From: a virus
Length of the DNA stretch: 64,000 nucleotides
IMG/VR virus record: IMGVR_UViG_3300032087_002755
Direction: 5' to 3' (one strand)
Below the pieces are notes generated by a model. That model did no database searches, had not been told where the DNA came from, and saw nothing but the letters and a program-made list of their open reading frames with translations. A program made the position numbers and the translations under genes. Shown here piece by piece: positions 931 through 11,461 of the stretch (position 1 is its first letter; every line of letters starts with the position of its first letter).

Positions 931-3405
931 ATGGCAACTAATTCGAAATTCAGTGCTGATTTAGGTATACAAACCGATGCAGATTTACAAGTAGACGGAA
1001 ACGTCACTGTATCAGGCAACCTAACAGTCAACGGAACCCAAACAACAGTTAATTCCACTACAACTTCAGTGGAAGATTCAATGTTGGAGCTTGCAAATGC
1101 AAACTTATCTTCAGACACTTTAGATATTGGTATTTACGGAAACTATGATGACGGATTGGGTGACGGAGTATCAGAGTATACTGGTTTCTTTAGAGATGCA
1201 TCAGACTCAACTTGGAAATTATTTGACGGATTAGAAGCAGAACCTACAACTACAGTCAATACTAGTGGGACAGGTTATACACTTGCAGACTTACAGGTGG
1301 GTGACTTAACTGCAACTACTTTGACTGCAACCAACGCCCTTACAGGGTCTTCTATCACCTATCCTACTTCAGACGGAACAAACGGACAAGTTTTAAAAAC
1401 AAATGGAAGTGGTGTTTTATCATTCGGTGATATCCCAGCAGGATATACTGATTCAGACGCTAGAAGTGCAATAAGTGTTAGTGGAAATCTTGCATATGAT
1501 AGTTCAACTGGTGTCATTTCGTATACTGAACCAACCATGTATGCAGACTCGGACGCTAGAAGTGCAATAAGTGTTAGTGGAAATCTTGCATATAATAGTT
1601 CAACGGGTGTTATATCTTACTCAGAACCTACAATGTATGCAGACTCAGACGCTAGAAGTGCAATAAGTGCTGGAACTGGAATATCATATGACAGTTCAAC
1701 TGGAGTAATAACAAATACAGTTTCAAATACTGATACAACATATAGTGCTGGAACTGGATTAACTTTAACAGGAACAACATTCAGTAATAATATAACTCAA
1801 TATACTGATTCAGATGTTGGAACATATCTTTCTTCAAACGGATATGCAACACAATCTACTATAGTTGCAGCGATTACCGATTCAGCACCAGCAACATTAG
1901 ATACTCTAAATGAACTTGCAGCTGCACTAGGTGATGATGCAAACTTTAGTACAACAGTAACAAATAGTATTGCACTTAAAGCTCCATTAGCAAGTCCTGT
2001 ATTTTCGGGTACTGTAGACATGGGTACTTTTGGAAATAGAACAAGAGCTTTTGAAGCATACGGAAGCAATGTTTTATTTGATGGTGGTAGTGATAAAATA
2101 GATTTAATCATTGGTGATGGTTCATCAGCTTATATGTCTATTCAGACAACTGATACTGCTAGTGCCATGAACATTCGTGATTACTCAGGAAATGCAGATT
2201 TGGTTACGATTGAAAGAGCCACAGGCAATGTCGGTGTAGGCACAAATGCTCCTGACGATTTGCTTCATGTTTTTGCAGGAGATTCTACAGCTACACCACA
2301 TAGTATCTCAGCATTCAATATTGAAAGTGCTTCAGATGTTGCAATGAATTTCCTAACTCCAAATACATCTCAAGCACAAATAAGATTTGCAGACCCACAA
2401 GACGATGGAAAGGGCATTATTGGTTATGACCATAGTAGTGATTATATGTTCTTCTCAACCAATGGGCCTGAGAGATTGCGTCTTACAAGTAGTGGTGACA
2501 TGCATCTTGGGGCATCTGATTCGGATGTGTTCTTCTATCTAGGTTCAAATGGTGGATTAACTGGTGGTAATTCATCTCATAATATGAGAGCATCAGGAAA
2601 TCAATTAATGTTCAACGCAGGTGGTGCTTCAAGTTCTTTTGTATATGAAGTAAATGGTTCACAAAAAATGAACCTTGCATCTGATGGTAAACTTAATGTT
2701 ATACCTTCATCAGCAACAGATAATTATGGAATGACAATAATTACAGGAAATAGTGCTGATACTGGAATAAAGATAGGTAGAAGTGGTGCAAATAATGCTA
2801 TGTTTGGTTTAGCAGTTGTTTCAAATGGAACCAATAGTATCGGTAGATTACAGTTTGACGGAGATGGTGATGTAGCTTTTGGTGATGCAGCTAATATAGA
2901 ATTGAGAGATGGTAATCTTGTAAGAATACAGTCTGCATTTTCAAATGATACATATGCAACTAACAGAGCTGTGTATGCAGAAGACCAAGGTGAACTTGGA
3001 TACAATGCATCTGTAAGAGCATCAAAAACAAATATTACAGATGTCGATGATGTTAGTTGGTTATATAATCTAAATGCAAAGACATTCAATAAACGCAAAA
3101 AAATTCAAGGTGAAAAACAATCAGATGGAACATATTCTTACTCCTATAGTGATACTGAACATAGTGGTATAACGGAATATGGTTTTATTGCAGAGGATTT
3201 AGAAGCATTAGCACCTGAACTTTGTTTCTATGGATATACAAGAGATGTTGATGCAGACGGAAACGAGTTAGATACCTTTACAAAAGGTGAATTACAAGGT
3301 ATTCATTACGAATCTATGGTTGCACCTATGTTAAAACTCATACAAAATCAGAAAGACGAAATAGATGCACTAGAAGTCCGTATTGCAACACTAGAATCTG
3401 AATAA
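931..3405 (+). CDS. Tail fibre protein with C-terminal intramolecular chaperone (peptidase S74-like) domain
   Basis: G/S/T-rich fibre repeats, 'APATLDTLNELAAALGDD' motif, 'GNVGVGT' repeats, and a C-terminal 'S.R.SKTNI...YGFIAEDL..L.P...coiled coil' chaperone signature. Confidence 0.85.
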   Translation: MATNSKFSADLGIQTDADLQVDGNVTVSGNLTVNGTQTTVNSTTTSVEDSMLELANANLSSDTLDIGIYGNYDDGLGDGVSEYTGFFRDASDSTWKLFDGLEAEPTTTVNTSGTGYTLADLQVGDLTATTLTATNALTGSSITYPTSDGTNGQVLKTNGSGVLSFGDIPAGYTDSDARSAISVSGNLAYDSSTGVISYTEPTMYADSDARSAISVSGNLAYNSSTGVISYSEPTMYADSDARSAISAGTGISYDSSTGVITNTVSNTDTTYSAGTGLTLTGTTFSNNITQYTDSDVGTYLSSNGYATQSTIVAAITDSAPATLDTLNELAAALGDDANFSTTVTNSIALKAPLASPVFSGTVDMGTFGNRTRAFEAYGSNVLFDGGSDKIDLIIGDGSSAYMSIQTTDTASAMNIRDYSGNADLVTIERATGNVGVGTNAPDDLLHVFAGDSTATPHSISAFNIESASDVAMNFLTPNTSQAQIRFADPQDDGKGIIGYDHSSDYMFFSTNGPERLRLTSSGDMHLGASDSDVFFYLGSNGGLTGGNSSHNMRASGNQLMFNAGGASSSFVYEVNGSQKMNLASDGKLNVIPSSATDNYGMTIITGNSADTGIKIGRSGANNAMFGLAVVSNGTNSIGRLQFDGDGDVAFGDAANIELRDGNLVRIQSAFSNDTYATNRAVYAEDQGELGYNASVRASKTNITDVDDVSWLYNLNAKTFNKRKKIQGEKQSDGTYSYSYSDTEHSGITEYGFIAEDLEALAPELCFYGYTRDVDADGNELDTFTKGELQGIHYESMVAPMLKLIQNQKDEIDALEVRIATLESE
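1450..1710 (+). repeat. 96-nt (32 aa) tandem repeat, about 2.7 copies, in the tail fibre
   Basis: DSDARSAISVSGNLAY.SSTGVISY.EPTMYA units start at 1450, 1546 and 1642. Confidence 0.9.
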
Positions 3406-3505: not shown

Positions 3506-3766
3506 ATGGCAACACAAAATACATTCGTAATTGAGTATGGTTTAACAGTAGGTACTACTGAAATCATATCAAGTGCTGGTAAACTTGCTGCATCAGCATT
3601 ATCTTTATTAGATACAGATAATCTTGCAGAAGGGTCAGTGAATCAATACTTTTCAAACTCTCTCGCAAGGGGTGCTATATCACTTGCGTCAGGTGAAACA
3701 AATTTAAGTTATAATTCATCAAATGGTGAATTATCATTACCACAATTAGATGGAGGAACATTCTAA
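3506..3766 (+). CDS. Small tail-fibre-associated protein
   Basis: AGGAG RBS, 'DTDNLAEGSVNQYF' fibre motif, ends in LDGGTF. Confidence 0.65.
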   Translation: MATQNTFVIEYGLTVGTTEIISSAGKLAASALSLLDTDNLAEGSVNQYFSNSLARGAISLASGETNLSYNSSNGELSLPQLDGGTF

Positions 3767-5367
3767 TGACAGCTAAGAATTTTAATATCAAAAATGGTTT
3801 ATCCATTGGTGGTGTAGAGGTAATCGACTCCAGTGGTAATATTGCCGCAGGTGGAGTAGGTGCAGCGGTTCAAGAAGCAATCGCAGACAAAATCGGTTCG
3901 ATAATTCAAGGGTCAGGTTCAACAACCGTGACTTATGATGACGATGCTGATACAATTACAATCTCATCAACAGGAAAAACTGAAGAAGAAATACAAGATA
4001 TCATTGGTGCTGCTTTAGCAACTAATGGTACACATACTGGTTTATCAGTCGCATATGACGATGCTGGTGATGGTGCAATAGACATAACTGTAAGTCTTTC
4101 TTCATTCGATACAGATGCATTATCAGAAGGAAGTTCAAACCTTTATTATACAGATACAAGAGCAGACGCAAGAATTTCAAATGCAATACTAGATTCAGAT
4201 ACATTTACTGGTGCGTTATCTACTAACGTTCCTTCTGCTGAATCAACAAAAGCATATGTTGATGCACAAACAACAGACGAAACTGCAGAGGGGTCAACAA
4301 ACCTCTATTTTACAGATGCACGTGTGATGACTTCACTAGCAACTGTAGATGCACATATTGTACCAACTACAGACGTAACATACGACTTAGGTTCTTCTTC
4401 AAAACAATGGAGAGATATCTATGTCGGGCCAGGTTCATTATATGTTAATGGACAACAAGTGGTTTCAGACAACTCAGGAACAATTACTGTTTCTGCTGAT
4501 TCAGACCAAAATGTTAGTGTTCAAACAAGTGGTTCGGGTGATATCGAATTAGATGCAACTGGAACAGGTAATGTCCAAATTAAATCACCTATGCAGATAC
4601 AAGCTTCAAATGCTATATCTTCATCAGACGGAAATGCAATTCAATTCTCAAACTCAATTGACGTAGATGCAATCGAGTCAAGAAGTACAGACACTAACTT
4701 AGTGTTGACAGGAAATGGAACAGGTAATGTTACAATTAATGACTCTTTAGCAGTCACAGGTGACCTAACAGTTTCAGGAACTACAACAACTGTAAACTCA
4801 GAAACAATTTCACTTGCAGATAACATTATTGCATTAAACAGTAATTTCACTTCAGGTTCACCAACAGAAGACACTGGTATCAGTGTAACTCGTGGTGGTT
4901 CTGCTGCTAAGACACTTCTTTGGGACGAAACAAATGACAAATGGACAGTAGGTTCAGAAACTTTTGTTGCAGCCACTTTTGAAGGTGCATTAACAGGTAA
5001 TGTTACAGGAACAGTTTCAGGAAATGCTGGTTCAGCAACAATCTTAGAGTCAGCAAGAACAATTAGTTTAGGTGGTGACCTTTCGGGTTCTGCTTCATTC
5101 AATGGTTCTGCAGATATTTCAATCTCAGCAACAATTGCAGACGATTCTCATAATCACGTAATATCAAATGTAGACGGATTACAAACTGCATTAGATACAA
5201 AATATGAGAGTGGAGATAACGTATCATTAGGAACTATAGCTTCAGGTGCAATTACAATCACCAATGCAACGAATGCTGGTGGAACTGCAAGAAATATGTA
5301 CCAATCAACATCAGCTCCTGCTTCAGGTGATGGTGCAGTTGGTGATATGTGGATTCTTTACTCCTAA
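3766..5367 (+). CDS. Tail fibre protein
   Basis: 'TDALSEGSSNLYYTD.R' repeats, 'YDLGSSSKQWRDIY', and a C-terminal 'STSAP..GDG..GDMW' motif common in phage fibres. Confidence 0.8.
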   Translation: MTAKNFNIKNGLSIGGVEVIDSSGNIAAGGVGAAVQEAIADKIGSIIQGSGSTTVTYDDDADTITISSTGKTEEEIQDIIGAALATNGTHTGLSVAYDDAGDGAIDITVSLSSFDTDALSEGSSNLYYTDTRADARISNAILDSDTFTGALSTNVPSAESTKAYVDAQTTDETAEGSTNLYFTDARVMTSLATVDAHIVPTTDVTYDLGSSSKQWRDIYVGPGSLYVNGQQVVSDNSGTITVSADSDQNVSVQTSGSGDIELDATGTGNVQIKSPMQIQASNAISSSDGNAIQFSNSIDVDAIESRSTDTNLVLTGNGTGNVTINDSLAVTGDLTVSGTTTTVNSETISLADNIIALNSNFTSGSPTEDTGISVTRGGSAAKTLLWDETNDKWTVGSETFVAATFEGALTGNVTGTVSGNAGSATILESARTISLGGDLSGSASFNGSADISISATIADDSHNHVISNVDGLQTALDTKYESGDNVSLGTIASGAITITNATNAGGTARNMYQSTSAPASGDGAVGDMWILYS

Positions 5368-5394: not shown

Positions 5395-5420
5395 ATAGTA
5401 TGTTAACGGAGACAATATAA

Positions 5421-6074
5421 ATGGCTACAGGATTCTTTCAACAACCTAATTCGGGGTCAGCACAAACGGCGGTTAATGCACAAACACCGTTCACTTATAA
5501 TGCTAGATATCCAGCAAGTGCTCAGCAACCGTATACGTTCCAATCACCATTTACATATAGTGCAAGATATCCTGCGAATGCTCAACAACCGTTTACGTTC
5601 CAGTCACCATTTACATATAGGGTGCCTTATATTGCTAATGCAAGACAACCAGTAATTTATAGAAACCCATTTACATATAGGGTTCCATATATTGCAAATG
5701 CTAGACAACCAGTAATCTATCAACATAGGTCTCCTTTCACTTATAGAAATCCTGTATCTGCACAAGAACCTAATATCAGAAATGCACAAACACCTTTCAC
5801 TTACAGAAACCCAGTGAATGGTCAAGAACCTAACATTAGAAACGCACAAACACCTTTCACTTATAGAAACCCAGTGAATGGTCAAGAACCTAATATTAGA
5901 AATGCACAAACACCGTTTACGTATCAGAATAGACAACCATTTACGTATCAGAACAGACAACCGTTCACATATCAGAATAGACAACCTTCTACATATGCGA
6001 CACAAGGTAGAACGCCAGAAGCGAGATGGGACGGAGTAGTAACACAGCAGTGGCCTGCTCAACCAATAACATAG
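5421..6074 (+). CDS. Pro-periodic repeat protein A (putative fibre chain)
   Basis: Prolines recur every 6 or 8 residues (PFTY/PYIANARQ/PNIRNAQT units). The gene lies in the tail-fibre late operon. Confidence 0.75.
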   Translation: MATGFFQQPNSGSAQTAVNAQTPFTYNARYPASAQQPYTFQSPFTYSARYPANAQQPFTFQSPFTYRVPYIANARQPVIYRNPFTYRVPYIANARQPVIYQHRSPFTYRNPVSAQEPNIRNAQTPFTYRNPVNGQEPNIRNAQTPFTYRNPVNGQEPNIRNAQTPFTYQNRQPFTYQNRQPFTYQNRQPSTYATQGRTPEARWDGVVTQQWPAQPIT

Positions 6075-6816
6075 GAATAAGATAATGGCATCAGGAAATC
6101 AAAACGTCAAAACACCTACAGGTTGGAATGCAACACGTGGTGCATGGGTAAAAACACCAGCTGGTTGGAATGCAGTAGACCAAATATATGTAAAAACACC
6201 TTCAGGGTGGAATAATGCATCAGGACAAGAATTAACACAAATTCCATATCCTTACATTGCAAATGCTCAGAATCCTTATATTGCAGATGCACAACAACCG
6301 TATATTGCAAATGCACAACAACCATATATTGCAGATGCAAGACAACCGTCAACCTATCAACATAGGTCACCATTTACTTATCAAAACCCAAGTAATGCTA
6401 GACAACCTTCTACATATAGTCATAGGTCACCATTTACTTATCAAAACCCAAGTAATGCTAGACAACCGTCAACCTATCAACATAGGTCACCGTTCACTTA
6501 CAGAAATCCTGTAAATGCACAAGAACCTAATATAAGAAATAGACAGTCACCGTTCACTTATAGTGCTAGATATCCTGCGAATGCTCAGAGTCCTAGTAAT
6601 AAACAGTCACCATTTACATATAGTGCAAGGTATCCTGCGAATATTAGACAACCTAACAGTGCAAGGAACCCGTTCACATACAGAGTTCCATATATTGCTA
6701 ATGCTAGACAACCTAACAGTGCAAGGAATCCGTTTACATATCGTGTTCCATATATTGCTAATGCTAGACAACCTAACATTGCAAGGTCACCGTCAATCTA
6801 TAACTATAGATTCCCA
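5445..6816 (+). repeat. Degenerate 60-nt and 24-nt coding repeats shared by the two repeat genes
   Basis: 60-nt units at about 5763/5823/5883 and 6337/6397/6457, and 24-nt units at about 5912-5985 and 6250-6345. The cassette TCACCATTTACATATAGTGCAAG occurs in both genes. Confidence 0.9.
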
Positions 6817-6894
6817 ATGGTGTACTTCTATCAAACTGGTGGAGGAAATTTCTTACCACAGGGAGATGGTACGAAGAACGTGGGAGCTCTATAA
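6085..6894 (+). CDS. Pro-periodic repeat protein B with N-terminal triple VKTPxGW motif (putative partner fibre chain)
   Basis: Uses the same repeat vocabulary as protein A, and its proline spacing is the mirror image of A. Confidence 0.75.
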   Translation: MASGNQNVKTPTGWNATRGAWVKTPAGWNAVDQIYVKTPSGWNNASGQELTQIPYPYIANAQNPYIADAQQPYIANAQQPYIADARQPSTYQHRSPFTYQNPSNARQPSTYSHRSPFTYQNPSNARQPSTYQHRSPFTYRNPVNAQEPNIRNRQSPFTYSARYPANAQSPSNKQSPFTYSARYPANIRQPNSARNPFTYRVPYIANARQPNSARNPFTYRVPYIANARQPNIARSPSIYNYRFPMVYFYQTGGGNFLPQGDGTKNVGAL

Positions 6895-6913
6895 TCTCAT
6901 TCACAAATTTAAA

Positions 6914-6936
6914 AGGGACTTTCGAGTCCCTTTTTT
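6914..6936 (+). terminator. Rho-independent terminator
   Basis: AGGGACT-TTCG-AGTCCCT plus T-run, almost identical to the terminator after gp23. Confidence 0.9.
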
Positions 6937-6954
6937 GTATCCTAAATACATTGT

Positions 6955-8529
6955 ATGAAAAACTTGAAATACTATACAGAAGTTTTAGAAGAACTCAAAC
7001 CCGAAGATTGGGACTTTAAAACACTAACTACACAAGAATTATATCAAAAAGAAGATTATCACTTCGGTGCTTTTAATGATATACGAACCATAGACAAAGA
7101 TACTGAAGTATATAAATCCTTTAAATATGTCTTTGAGAACATTATACCACCCACAAAAATCATTAAGTGGGGAGATATTTTAGAATTACGTAAGAATAAA
7201 ACATTCATAGGATTCCAAGGAACTTCATTGGAAGCCATGCATTATCACAAATATTTACCACACGTATATACCGACAAAGAGAGAACTGGTAAACAGATAG
7301 GAAATATGGATTGTAAGACACCTGATGGTGAATATGCAGATATTACGGAATTCACACCTCTATTAACACAAGAACAGAAAGACCAAGACCATATAGGTAT
7401 ATCATTAAACTCTATGTATTATCATAGTGCAAAAGCACATTGGTTGGTTCAAAGTATACAAGAAGAAGGATTACGACACCCTATACAAGGAGTGACATTT
7501 AAAGTTGACGATAGATTTGGTTTTAGAATCCACCCAGGCTCTATTAGGTCTAAAGTGTTTGAAGAATTAGAAGACCCAAATTTCGAAATATTTGCAACAG
7601 ATATACACGATATCTTTGATTCAAAACCTTTGACTTGTGACGAGGTGTTAGAATATTGGTGTAAGAAACTAGAAGAGAGAAAAGATACTATCGGTAATTA
7701 TAACATGTCAGTAACACTATGTAATGGAAACATAGAATACAACCATGCATTAATGGATTTAGACTTTCGAAAAGAAGTTTGGGAACATAGTAAAAAAGCA
7801 ACACTTCAATCCAAAGGTAAACCTCTCAACATTTACATTGGGTATGATAGTAGCCATGGAGACTTACATGAAGTTAGTAAAGATTCAATTCTCAAAACTC
7901 TGAGTAACCAACACCTTGGACACTTAATTAAAGAAACAGAGTGGAAACCTGAGATTAAGTTTCTTGACATTTCCAAACTTCCCGATTATAATAGAGAGTA
8001 TGCAAATCAATCTACTGAATTTACTTATAGTAGATTCTTAATTCCACATTTAGAAAATTATGAAGGTTATAGTATTTTTATGGATAATGATTTCATATGG
8101 AGAAAATCTATACTACCTTTATTCTATTATTTGAACTTAGATGATGCAGTTGCATGTATTCAATACAAACAAATAGAACACGATGAAACCAAGTTTAATG
8201 GTGAGGTTAATATAGACTATCCGAAAAAACTATGGTCAAGTCTTATGGTATTCAATAATGGACATGAAGACTGTAAGAAATTAACACCCGAAGTAGTAAA
8301 CACTTGGACTGGAAAACAATTACACCAGTTTGAATGGACTGATAAGATTAGTAAAATACCCGAAAAGTATGTCTTTACTGAGGGGTATGATGACCCTGAT
8401 GAGAAATGGGATTATCATGGTATCCATTATACAAGGGGAGGCCCATGGGTAAAAGACATGGATTATTCCAACATAAATAACTTAGATGACTGGTTAACTG
8501 CAAAAACCAACTTGCAAAAAAACCAATAA
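6955..8529 (+). CDS. Two-domain protein: N-terminal unknown (ParB/Srx-like?) domain plus C-terminal GT-A glycosyltransferase
   Basis: The C-terminal half has IYIGYD, STEFTYSRFLIP, FMDNDF (DxD), WSSLMVFN, LHQFEW and HYTRGGPW, motifs of a phage/proteobacterial glycosyltransferase family. Confidence 0.75.
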   Translation: MKNLKYYTEVLEELKPEDWDFKTLTTQELYQKEDYHFGAFNDIRTIDKDTEVYKSFKYVFENIIPPTKIIKWGDILELRKNKTFIGFQGTSLEAMHYHKYLPHVYTDKERTGKQIGNMDCKTPDGEYADITEFTPLLTQEQKDQDHIGISLNSMYYHSAKAHWLVQSIQEEGLRHPIQGVTFKVDDRFGFRIHPGSIRSKVFEELEDPNFEIFATDIHDIFDSKPLTCDEVLEYWCKKLEERKDTIGNYNMSVTLCNGNIEYNHALMDLDFRKEVWEHSKKATLQSKGKPLNIYIGYDSSHGDLHEVSKDSILKTLSNQHLGHLIKETEWKPEIKFLDISKLPDYNREYANQSTEFTYSRFLIPHLENYEGYSIFMDNDFIWRKSILPLFYYLNLDDAVACIQYKQIEHDETKFNGEVNIDYPKKLWSSLMVFNNGHEDCKKLTPEVVNTWTGKQLHQFEWTDKISKIPEKYVFTEGYDDPDEKWDYHGIHYTRGGPWVKDMDYSNINNLDDWLTAKTNLQKNQ

Positions 8530-8557
8530 TAGTATATAATGAATAGAGGAACAAAAT

Positions 8558-9118
8558 ATGAATGCATTAATATATAACCAAGATAGTAGACTTACTATAA
8601 GAAAACCTAACGGATTAGAGTGGGATTACGATAATGTTGATAAGCCTGATTTAGGATTTGATTATGAGGTGTTGATATATGAAGACATTGAAGTAAAAAT
8701 ACTTAAATGGGAAGACGGAAAGTGTTTTGACGACCAAGAGAAAGAACCTATATCTGATTCTGAAAAAGATGCAATCGAATTGTATATTGATAATGCAGAA
8801 CCACCTTTAGGTTATAACTTAAATACACAATTTATCAATAGACTTGAAAGTGTAGTAATTGATTATACAAATTCCACTGCACAACAATACGGTATGTATG
8901 ATTTAAATTATGCAAATATTGCTGGAAGAGAGGGGTCTAATCACCCTAGACGTGCAGATGCAAGAAGAACATTAGAATATTTTGATGCAATTTGGTCAGT
9001 GTTTGAAACTGTTGCAAATGAGATTCAGCAAACAAGAGAAGATACTTTAAAACCATTAGACGATTATCTTGCAGCGTTCCCCGACCCAATGGTAACACCC
9101 GATTCAAGAACAGGTTAA
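8558..9118 (+). CDS. Hypothetical protein, possibly a tail-fibre assembly chaperone
   Basis: GAGG RBS, acidic 186 aa protein. Its position is typical of fibre chaperones. Confidence 0.45.
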   Translation: MNALIYNQDSRLTIRKPNGLEWDYDNVDKPDLGFDYEVLIYEDIEVKILKWEDGKCFDDQEKEPISDSEKDAIELYIDNAEPPLGYNLNTQFINRLESVVIDYTNSTAQQYGMYDLNYANIAGREGSNHPRRADARRTLEYFDAIWSVFETVANEIQQTREDTLKPLDDYLAAFPDPMVTPDSRTG

Positions 9119-9121
9119 TGC

Positions 9122-9868
9122 ATGGAACTCATTTACCATGATGAGTCCTTCAAGTTACAAGACATAGGATTCCCACTTAAAGACATTCACATTGTTGATA
9201 ATTGGTTACCTGTACAAATACACCATTGGATTGATAATACATTTTCTAGAAATCAAATATGGTCTAAACAAAACCAAGTGAATGCTGGTAGTCCTACTGG
9301 ATTACCTCATCATCAGTTTTGGGGTGTTGGACTCTTTGACGCTGGACGGAGTGGAAAGAAGTATGAATATCCTAATTTTGCAAAAGAGATGCACGAAGAT
9401 TCTTGGTCTGAGTTATATGATTGTAGAGCAGTCGCAAGATATTTAGATAGAAAATTACAAACAGACTTTGGTTTTAAGTGGGAAAGATTTCAATACATGG
9501 GACTGAATTCACAAACACAAGGTTTACACGGAACAACACATGCAGATTGTGAAGATGAAGATGAGTGGAATCTATCGTTTTTATATTATACCAATAAGTT
9601 TTGGGAGAAACATTGGGGAGGCCCTTTGAGAATATATGACGAAATGCAACAGGGTTTACATGGTCGTGCAAATCATATAAAGAATCACCAAATTGCAGAA
9701 ATAGAATTTAAACCAAATAGATTGTTAATATTTGACGGAAGAATACCACATGGTGCAGATGCACCTACACCCGAGGCACGTTATATGGACAGAAAGTCCA
9801 TAGTTATTAGAGGCGATGAAATTAGACTGGTAGAAGATGAGGAGTTTTTTAAACAATGCCCACGATAG
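9122..9868 (+). CDS. 2OG-Fe(II) oxygenase (prolyl-hydroxylase-like)
   Basis: HxD (THAD), distal H (IPHGA), R (RKSIV), WGG and 'PNRLLIFDG' motifs. Confidence 0.8.
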   Translation: MELIYHDESFKLQDIGFPLKDIHIVDNWLPVQIHHWIDNTFSRNQIWSKQNQVNAGSPTGLPHHQFWGVGLFDAGRSGKKYEYPNFAKEMHEDSWSELYDCRAVARYLDRKLQTDFGFKWERFQYMGLNSQTQGLHGTTHADCEDEDEWNLSFLYYTNKFWEKHWGGPLRIYDEMQQGLHGRANHIKNHQIAEIEFKPNRLLIFDGRIPHGADAPTPEARYMDRKSIVIRGDEIRLVEDEEFFKQCPR

Positions 9869-10752
9869 AATTTAACACATATAACGAACAAACACTTAAA
9901 GATGTAAAACCCGTTCTTGCAAAATCTGTTTCACCCGATTGGTGGAAACAGATGAAATTTAGTGAATATAATCGTGGAAATCTAATAACAACTATTCGTG
10001 CATGTCCAGCTATGGACGATTGGTTAAAAAGTGGTTGGTATTTACTTGCAAACAGAGATATGATTGTTAAGAATGGTAGTATTACAGATTCAGATGACGA
10101 TGATGAAATTTATATGTCAACACATGAATTTGGTGAAGGTTATGAACACCCTTCACCAGCACACCCTAGTGGTCAAATGGGATATGCATTTCAATATATT
10201 CCTGATGACGAAGCACCAATAAGGGGTGCATTTAAGTTTAGAAATCCATGGAATATTACAACACCGCCTGGATATTCTTGTTTATATCTAGACCCATTTC
10301 TATTTCAAAATAAATTCTTTGCAACATGGCAAGGTATTATTGATACAGACAAGTTTAATGCAAACTATGATAATGCACAAGTAATATTCTATCCTCGTGT
10401 TGGACATTCATTCGTTATACCAAAAGGAACACCTCTTTGTCAAATTATACCATATAAAAGAGAAGAATGGCAAGCCACATACCTTACGTATAAGTCTAAT
10501 GATTGGACAAAGAATAGAAGTCATATTACTAGTAACCGTGAAAATAAAACTATGGACGAGTTTTCAAGAGACCCAGCAACTTCTGATGAATATAGAAAAA
10601 ATGAAATGACAGTTGGTGGTTATCGTGGTGGTAATTTACATTCTAATAAAGGTAAACTATATAAACAAGAGAATCCACCACCCGAGTGTCCTTATCATGT
10701 AAGTGAGGATTCACCCGAAATACAATTGGAGTTAAACTTAAAAGATGATTAG
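9856..10752 (+). CDS. Conserved T4-like marine phage protein often found among 2OG-Fe(II) oxygenase genes
   Basis: 'CPAM.D', 'KF.NPW.I.TPPGYS.L', 'GIIDTD' and 'KGTPLCQIIP.KRE' motifs. Function unknown. Confidence 0.55.
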   Translation: MPTIEFNTYNEQTLKDVKPVLAKSVSPDWWKQMKFSEYNRGNLITTIRACPAMDDWLKSGWYLLANRDMIVKNGSITDSDDDDEIYMSTHEFGEGYEHPSPAHPSGQMGYAFQYIPDDEAPIRGAFKFRNPWNITTPPGYSCLYLDPFLFQNKFFATWQGIIDTDKFNANYDNAQVIFYPRVGHSFVIPKGTPLCQIIPYKREEWQATYLTYKSNDWTKNRSHITSNRENKTMDEFSRDPATSDEYRKNEMTVGGYRGGNLHSNKGKLYKQENPPPECPYHVSEDSPEIQLELNLKDD

Positions 10753-11461
10753 ATTATTATTCCCATATGTCTGTATTGAAAGAGACCTTTTAAAAGAAGG
10801 TGCAATCAGTGAAGACTATATTAAAATTCTCAAAGACGCTGTGGACGGAATGAGAAAGAAAGACACAGTTGGTAGAAGTATTTCTAATCAATACACTGGT
10901 TGGCAGTCAAATGATGGTTGTGAAAGTCACCCAGCATTTCAAAAAATAATGAGGATAATTAAAAACACTTTTGATACTGAATTATTAGATTGGAATGGAC
11001 TTGATAGAGGACAGGTTCAACTAACAATGGGTAATTCATGGGCAAACATAAACGACAATACAGCATGGAATGCTCCACACTTACACAATGGTTGTTGGTA
11101 TAGTGGTGTGTTCTATATCCATGCAGATGGAGACGAAGGAGACTTTATAGCAGTTGATAAAGACCCAAAAGTGGTATCAGACTTTCCACATTCACCAAGA
11201 GAACAAGCAAATTTTAAAGTATCACCAACAACTGGTACATTGTTTCTATTTCCAAGTGGTTTGATGCATATGGTGGAACCCAATATGACTCAAAAAGATA
11301 GATATAGTATTTCCTTCAATATGAATGTCACCTACTTAACTGCTGGTCTACAAGCTAGATTAGGGAATCCTAAAGGATATCACCCCGATGAACTTACTTT
11401 TACTACAGACGAAGACGGGAAATTAGTTCATTTATTTCCACAATTAAACAGTAACGACTAA
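10745..11461 (+). CDS. Putative 2OG-Fe(II) oxygenase (TIGR02466-like)
   Basis: 'SWANIN', 'HLH...SGVFY', 'LFPSGLMHMVEPN' and 'RYSISFN' motifs. Confidence 0.8.
   Translation: MIRLLFPYVCIERDLLKEGAISEDYIKILKDAVDGMRKKDTVGRSISNQYTGWQSNDGCESHPAFQKIMRIIKNTFDTELLDWNGLDRGQVQLTMGNSWANINDNTAWNAPHLHNGCWYSGVFYIHADGDEGDFIAVDKDPKVVSDFPHSPREQANFKVSPTTGTLFLFPSGLMHMVEPNMTQKDRYSISFNMNVTYLTAGLQARLGNPKGYHPDELTFTTDEDGKLVHLFPQLNSND

Follow-up and report, generated by a model that had tools for sequence, protein, structure and literature searches.

The needle at the tip of the T4 long tail fiber, formed by gp37, is a thin rod in which six antiparallel beta strands run up and down, with a receptor-binding head at the turn (PMC9659904). 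Another T4 protein, gp5C, forms an octapeptide triple-stranded beta-helix in which several chains are intertwined (PMC3004832). We compared these systems with two adjacent genes for proline-punctuated repeat proteins, A and B, from an uncultured T4-like marine phage (IMG/VR record IMGVR_UViG_3300032087_002755), of which a 64,000-nucleotide stretch, here called the window, was analyzed. The A/B locus lies between the tail fiber genes and the gp13/gp15 neck genes, the genomic region that constitutes the host recognition cluster of pelagimyophages (PMC7029224). The window belongs to a T4-type marine myovirus with a tail sheath 51% identical to those of the Pelagibacter phages Mosig and HTVC008M, and by its sequence the phage is pelagimyophage-like.

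A and B appear to share with the gp37 needle domain, reportedly described by Bartual et al. in 2010, antiparallel arms, a conserved attachment base, and, where the arms turn, a head that varies. Inward residues are i and i+2 on one strand in gp37 and by prediction in A/B, and both belong to a T4-type tail fiber module. Each gp37 hairpin is made by one chain, whereas the up and down arms of A/B would be separate gene products. The gp37 core is of the His-x-His/iron kind, but there is no H-x-H in A or B, in which Phe/Tyr would instead be set against Ala/Gly. The gp37 rod measures about 15 nm in T4, compared with 190 to 540 paired residues in A/B-type chains, and gp37 lacks the regular prolines and the tandem, length-variable repeats that A and B both have. 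The gp5C helix and hexapeptide left-handed beta-helices have 8- or 6-residue sides between kinks, like A/B, but are built from identical parallel chains rather than from two different chains in a predicted antiparallel arrangement. The 6/8 periodicity is compatible with beta-helix repeat families, but A and B gave no Pfam match to them and AlphaFold2 (AF2) predicted no solenoid for B.

Searches with phmmer against PDB chains returned no match for B at an E value of ≤1 and only a chance match for A (E = 0.08), and neither protein matched PHROGs or NCBIfam. The sole Pfam match was to Cementoin (PF10511), on P-V-x-G-Q-E-P segments of A (35.1 bits against a 27-bit cutoff), with none in B. We rejected membership among the Cementoin/trappin transglutaminase substrates, as the match is a compositional one to Gln/Pro hexapeptides in a viral rather than a mammalian secreted context; additionally, A has not a single lysine and hence no Gln-plus-Lys cross-linking motif. 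A collagen-like triple helix was also rejected, given that Gly is rare in the repeats and that prolines are spaced at 6, 8, or 10 residues, with 96.9% of 5603 Pro-Pro spacings in related pairs being even. The 245 homologues recovered from databases are all metagenomic viral proteins without names, megablast against cultured phages gave no match, and the only tblastn match of B, lying under a glycerol kinase gene, was spurious. An Atlas search recovered the proteins' own family together with weak gp38-like structural rows (TM, 0.2 to 0.3), and a literature search found no description of a two-chain, mirror-matched fiber of this type. The fiber shaft that A and B probably form would be of a kind without earlier description.

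Gene architecture and genomic context

Genes A (5421..6074, plus strand, 217 amino acids) and B (6085..6894, plus strand, 269 amino acids) are separated by 10 nt and two stop codons and lie on one strand in different frames. The A protein, a “type-2” chain, opens with a short lead at its N terminus, runs through 25 segments delimited by prolines, and closes with a conserved C-terminal tail rich in Trp. Its repeat core (residues 23 to 198; 5487..6014, plus strand) follows a pattern of 8, 6, and 6 residues and so on, and the tail (residues 199 to 217; 6015..6071, plus strand) carries an R-W-D-G ... Q-Q-W motif. This tail, the conserved “base” end of A, is invariant in an alignment of relatives and was found in all 65 of the partner chains described below. 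The B protein, a “type-1” chain, starts with a conserved “base” domain of three 14-residue Trp-rich repeats (residues 1 to 53; 6085..6243, plus strand) and continues through about 27 segments into a short, Gly-rich tip tail (6814..6891, plus strand) made up of F-Y, a Gly run, and 17 more residues. The pattern of its repeat core (residues 54 to 243; 6244..6813, plus strand) is the reversed complement of that of the A core. All segments of both cores begin with proline and are 6, 8, or 10 residues long, and tandem repeats of 60 nt and 24 nt underlie them at the DNA level. Long alternative-frame open reading frames overlap the two genes at 5604-6062 (minus strand), 6116-6373 (minus strand), and 6563-6958 (plus strand); these were rejected as genes and attributed to the scarcity of stop codons in the repeats. 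A precedes B in the lineage of the window, and elsewhere the B-type gene precedes the A-type gene.

Immediately upstream is a gene for a 533-amino-acid fiber protein (3766..5367, plus strand) with matches to PHROG tail fibers, present in 63 of 80 syntenic loci. Two genes upstream of the pair, at 931-3405, we found a self-cleaving fiber or spike of 824 amino acids with a Peptidase_S74 (endosialidase chaperone) domain at residues 698 to 764. Downstream, a strictly syntenic cassette of five plus-strand genes (6955..11461) encodes a glycosyltransferase-like protein (6955-8529), a protein without assigned function (8558-9118), a 2OG-Fe(II) oxygenase (PF13640; 9122-9868), a second protein without assigned function (9856-10752), and a TIGR02466-type oxygenase (10745-11461). 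All four downstream genes were present in each of the 78 loci with enough flanking sequence. Gene order was kept in all 78 at ∼50 to 60% identity, which is unusual for a “hypervariable” host recognition cluster. This conservation hints at hydroxylation or glycosylation of a Pro/Thr/Tyr-rich fiber, the link to the fiber being conjecture.

In some relatives (L173 to L176, L178 to L181, and L188 to L218), a further repeat system, paralogous to A/B, lies ∼8 kb upstream of the pair and is encoded either by two genes (370 to 408 plus 214 to 271 amino acids) or by one fused chain of 443 to 541 amino acids. The split and fused forms have the same ends (N-terminal M-A-D-E-I-Y-I-N and C-terminal K-I-H-Q), and the occurrence of the system as two genes or one chain marks the tip as the point of fission or fusion. 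In a proline-register test of arm pairing, single-chain paralogues did not score above shuffles and split pairs scored only modestly above them, so the paralogous system supports the fusion/fission topology and not, by itself, the pairing. Like the A/B pair, it is preceded by a fiber gene, analogous to that for the 533-amino-acid protein. The fiber genes before both systems end alike, in Gly-(Asp/His)-(Met/Leu)-Trp-(Ile/Phe)-... (5355-5367 in the window and ∼1480-1491 in L188 and L190), and this shared end might serve as a peptide on which the base of each repeat pair docks.

Antiparallel complement in the window and in related viruses

A first-pass annotation of the window had proposed that A and B segments, aligned antiparallel by their prolines, pair nonrandomly, each type with a fixed partner. 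Reading the A segments in order against the B segments reversed, with B residues 222 to 229 as the first partner, we recovered each pairing that it listed (e.g., PFTY(S/N)ARY with PYIANARQ). Its rule that a single member of each of 24 central pairs carries an aromatic residue at position 4 holds in all 25 central pairs, which are of equal length and have Y/F at that position in exactly one member; the A 10-mer faces a 2+8 arrangement in B. The alignment takes in the entire A chain (residues 1 to 217) against B residues 37 to 252, with one gap residue. When the 12 repeat units of B were shuffled 5000 times, every shuffle scored below the observed 24 (shuffle mean, 10.7; shuffle maximum, 20).

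Two repeat cassettes are common to A and B in parallel order, and direct DNA repeats link 5481-5770 with 6544-6773 and 5697-5926 with 6334-6563. In terms of blocks, A is built as M1-M2-D and B as E-M2-M1, and the effective independence within the window is therefore closer to roughly four blocks than to 24 pairs. Because the cassettes are shared in parallel order, each faces its own paralogue once the chains are set antiparallel. The further claim that certain pairings occur twice in each orientation thus stood as a count but is partly automatic. The shared cassettes do not by themselves produce the reversed block order, the matched block sizes, or the complement of aromatic segments (two of three in the M1 of A and one of three in the M1 copy of B, with M2 the reverse). 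The native order scored highest among the 24 possible orders of the four blocks of B. No inverted repeats occur within 5400-6900, and a nucleic acid cause, such as an inverted repeat or antisense coding, was rejected.

We scanned IMG/VR twice, seeded with B and with a downstream gene, and obtained 160 loci. Two adjacent repeat genes were present in 136 of these, yielding 65 unique gene pairs. Their chains have about 20 to 70 segments each and are 190 to 559 amino acids long. Segments were coded by length and by aromatic or nonaromatic position 4, and the codes were aligned locally in four configurations. Almost letter for letter, the code of one chain corresponds to the reversed, case-swapped code of its neighbor. 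The antiparallel-complement configuration was the best of the four and exceeded all 100 segment shuffles in 65 of 65 pairs, a count that overstates the number of independent events given that the sequences are related and the repeats are copies. Its mean score was 21.1, whereas the other configurations averaged 5.0, 7.9, and 8.8 and the shuffles 4.5. Each chain aligned with itself scored only 8.2 or 8.3, and self-complementary homodimers were rejected on this basis. The complement extends to blocks without parallel homology, for example, where a block of six segments with four aromatic faces a block of six with two. The result across all 65 pairs removes the doubt raised by the shared cassettes of the window.

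A second, residue-level antiparallel alignment, scored on Pro-Pro coincidence alone, covered at least 95% of the shorter chain in 55 of the 65 pairs and at least 90% in 64, with a median of one gap residue, and always started at residue 37 of the B-type chain. Core lengths, measured separately for each chain, were closely correlated (r = 0.986; slope, 0.98) over 32 distinct lengths. Based on a tree of the neighboring glycosyltransferase-like gene, the two lengths changed in the same direction in 15 of 19 phylogenetically independent contrasts and agreed within 8 residues in 12. About 10% of the metagenomic pairs differ by at least one repeat unit (L013, L031, L064, and L067). Compared with the near-identical L007, L030, and L065, these loci differ by one or two units in one gene only. 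The mismatches could reflect collapse during short-read assembly, or they could be real, as tolerated differences or intermediates of coordinated expansion; real tolerance could weaken the idea of a strict register.

Residue covariation between facing segments

The near-complete evenness of Pro-Pro spacings indicates that a two-residue alternation, as in a beta strand, is unbroken through both chains. Under the proline-anchored alignment, aromatic residues lie opposite small ones at 2.3 to 3.2 times the expected frequency. The rule of a single aromatic residue at position 4 per pair holds for 98.3% of the paired 8-mers and 88.5% of the paired 6-mers. The 10-mers follow a rule of their own, in which a P-Y-P-Y start lies opposite an aromatic 10-mer and Gly8 of the latter lies opposite Tyr. 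Facing segments share mutual information only at even positions along the antidiagonal, with odd positions near zero. Values were 0.86 at (6,2), 0.44 at (2,4), and 0.43 at (4,2) for 6-mers, and 0.76 at (6,4), 0.74 at (6,2), 0.65 at (2,6), 0.49 at (2,8), and 0.48 at (8,2) for 8-mers. The same-position values (2,2), (6,6), and (8,8) were ≤0.14.

The facing rules are specific: His/Tyr6 is found opposite Arg4, Asn/Ala6 opposite Ala4, Phe2 opposite Ala/Gly6, Val6 opposite Ala2, and Asn6 opposite Val/Ser/Asn2, with Ala2 never opposite Asn6. In the two chain orientations, xHRS faces P-N-I-R in 255 of 282 and 225 of 259 instances, and Val6 faces Ala2 in 59 of 60 and 99 of 100. The proposal that cognate segments pair irrespective of which chain carries the aromatic member is thereby borne out, since the rules hold in both orientations and are conserved across the 65 pairs. 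Covariation across homologous pairs had been put forward as the check on the pairing, and the even-only, antidiagonal pattern is as expected if big residues pack against small ones between antiparallel beta strands. As read from these sequences, it is the signature of two antiparallel strands with one common face, and the original observation is confirmed in a stronger form than was visible in the window. Much of the pairing vocabulary may nevertheless consist of conserved homologous interface modules that were copied by coordinated duplication.

Fiber model and alternative explanations

Reversed-complement patterns recur in 65 related viruses with chains that differ greatly in length, and the two chains of a pair thus probably zip together head-to-tail. 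We consider it likely, on the strength of the comparative evidence, that A and B pair as the two chains of an antiparallel, heteromeric beta fiber shaft encoded in the host recognition cluster. The chains would run antiparallel along the full length of A, opposite B residues 37 to 252, with segments of equal length abutting proline against proline. Even-numbered residues would form the shared interface or core, in which bulky residues (F2 and Y4) of one chain would pack against small residues (Ala/Gly/Ser) of the other, and secondary pairs (His/Tyr6 with Arg4 and Val6 with Ala2) would tell the segment types apart. The number of repeats would set the length of the shaft, and coordinated duplications in both genes would change it.

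The end formed by the B N terminus and the A C terminus is invariant across relatives and the opposite end is variable; a conserved attachment end with a variable distal end is the usual polarity of tail fibers. The Trp-rich domain of B and the C-terminal tail of A would thus make up the proximal base, which probably docks onto the upstream 533-amino-acid fiber protein, its likely carrier. The distal tip would hold the B C terminus and the A N terminus. Past the last paired residue, the B-type chain has a short Gly-rich tail in 34 of the 65 pairs, as in the window, a Hint/intein-like domain in at least 12, and an unrelated globular domain of ∼150 amino acids in about 17, and these variable tip domains begin exactly where pairing ends. 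In many database homologues, the Hint domain starts with Gly-Cys-Phe directly after the paired region. Examples of Hint-tipped B-type chains are L014:4001-5302, L019:4522-5721, and L158:1635-3560, in which the domain starts no more than ∼15 residues from the last paired residue. The Hint domain is positioned at the tip, next to the N terminus of the partner chain, and can be compared with the C-terminal, self-cleaving chaperones of other phage fibers. The B protein of the window has no Hint/intein domain: it lacks the C-terminal His-Asn block and has Asn in place of the Cys that would follow Gly, with only 14 residues after it.

For the overall geometry, we would guess at three A/B “split hairpins” around a threefold axis, resembling a greatly lengthened T4 gp37 needle, although we hold this arrangement at somewhat less than even confidence. 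Several A/B ribbons, probably three, would in that case bury their even face (Phe/Tyr against Ala/Gly) around a common axis. AF2 modeling of B alone, from a 25-row alignment, gave a mean pLDDT of 38.4, with the repeat region predicted to be disordered and beta hairpins only in the N-terminal domain (pLDDT 50 to 67 at residues ∼20 to 50), and the single-chain paralogue L190 reached a mean of 33.6 from a 15-row alignment. At such low values, geometry and stoichiometry are guesses. A 3:3 complex prediction of the base halves (B residues 1 to 155 and A residues 97 to 217) had a partner pLDDT of <50 and counts neither for nor against the model.

The same partners and register could also be accommodated by a different geometry, a two-start (or 2n-start) antiparallel beta-helix of approximately triangular section with prolines at the corners. 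Each 6- or 8-residue segment would then form one side, A coils and B coils would stack alternately, and aromatic and small residues would alternate along each internal ladder, giving a short rod of about 10 to 25 nm rather than a long needle. Sides of these lengths also occur in the hexapeptide left-handed beta-helix and in the octapeptide helix of gp5C (PMC3004832). The repeat units nearly always comprise three segments, or 18, 20, or 24 residues, which are typical coil perimeters, and 95% of type-2 prolines face a proline in the proline-anchored alignment, as expected for turns at common corners. However, 8-mers occur in runs of 3, 4, and 6, two-segment units of 18 residues exist, and in 300 Pro-polar columns the proline is lost from one chain without a change in length. 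The lack of a solenoid in the AF2 model of B alone points the same way, although weakly. To our knowledge, no antiparallel heteromeric beta-helix has been described, and on balance we regard this geometry as unlikely.

It is very improbable that the two proteins are flexible, proline-rich spacers that are anchored at the same two structures and hence equal in length but not zipped together. Spacers of this kind would account for the length covariation alone, and AF2 does render the repeat region of B as disordered, but they leave unexplained the reversed order of segment types, the rule of one aromatic residue per pair, the even-only proline spacing, the covariation between facing even positions, and the cognate pairs in both orientations. 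The idea that no direct pairing exists, and that the pattern is a by-product of shared cassettes, period-3 length patterns, and chance block order, is scarcely credible: two cassettes of the window do occur in both A and B with the same orientation, any 8-6-6 pattern read backward is a rotation of itself, and at the level of four blocks the native order ranks first among no more than 24, but none of the 5000 unit-preserving shuffles matched the observed score, the complement recurs in 65 of 65 diverse pairs and in blocks lacking parallel homology, lengths match exactly over 190 to 559 amino acids, and the covariation is antidiagonal at even positions.

Returning to the paired antiparallel shaft, a wider reading is that its register is set by a small, orientation-symmetric vocabulary of cognate segment pairs of 6, 8, or 10 residues, with the chains pairing like complementary strands. 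One member of each pair would be aromatic at positions 2 and 4 and the other small, with His6-Arg4 and Val6-Ala2 as additional contacts. We advance this reading tentatively and lean somewhat against it. If it is true, fiber length would have been reprogrammed in evolution through mirrored duplications in two genes, and in lineages with a Hint domain at the tip, its thioester might covalently join both chains into a hairpin.

If the chains do zip, A and B would constitute a natural heteromeric beta fiber with length and register that can be read straight from sequence. For protein design, they would supply cognate strand pairs ready for use in beta assemblies built to a chosen length, and several hundred unnamed metagenomic proteins would gain a role. 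The pair would also represent an unusually clean case of two-gene coevolution through coordinated gain and loss of repeats. For phage biology, this would be a new design of tail fiber shaft, used by a phage group that ranks among the most abundant in the ocean.
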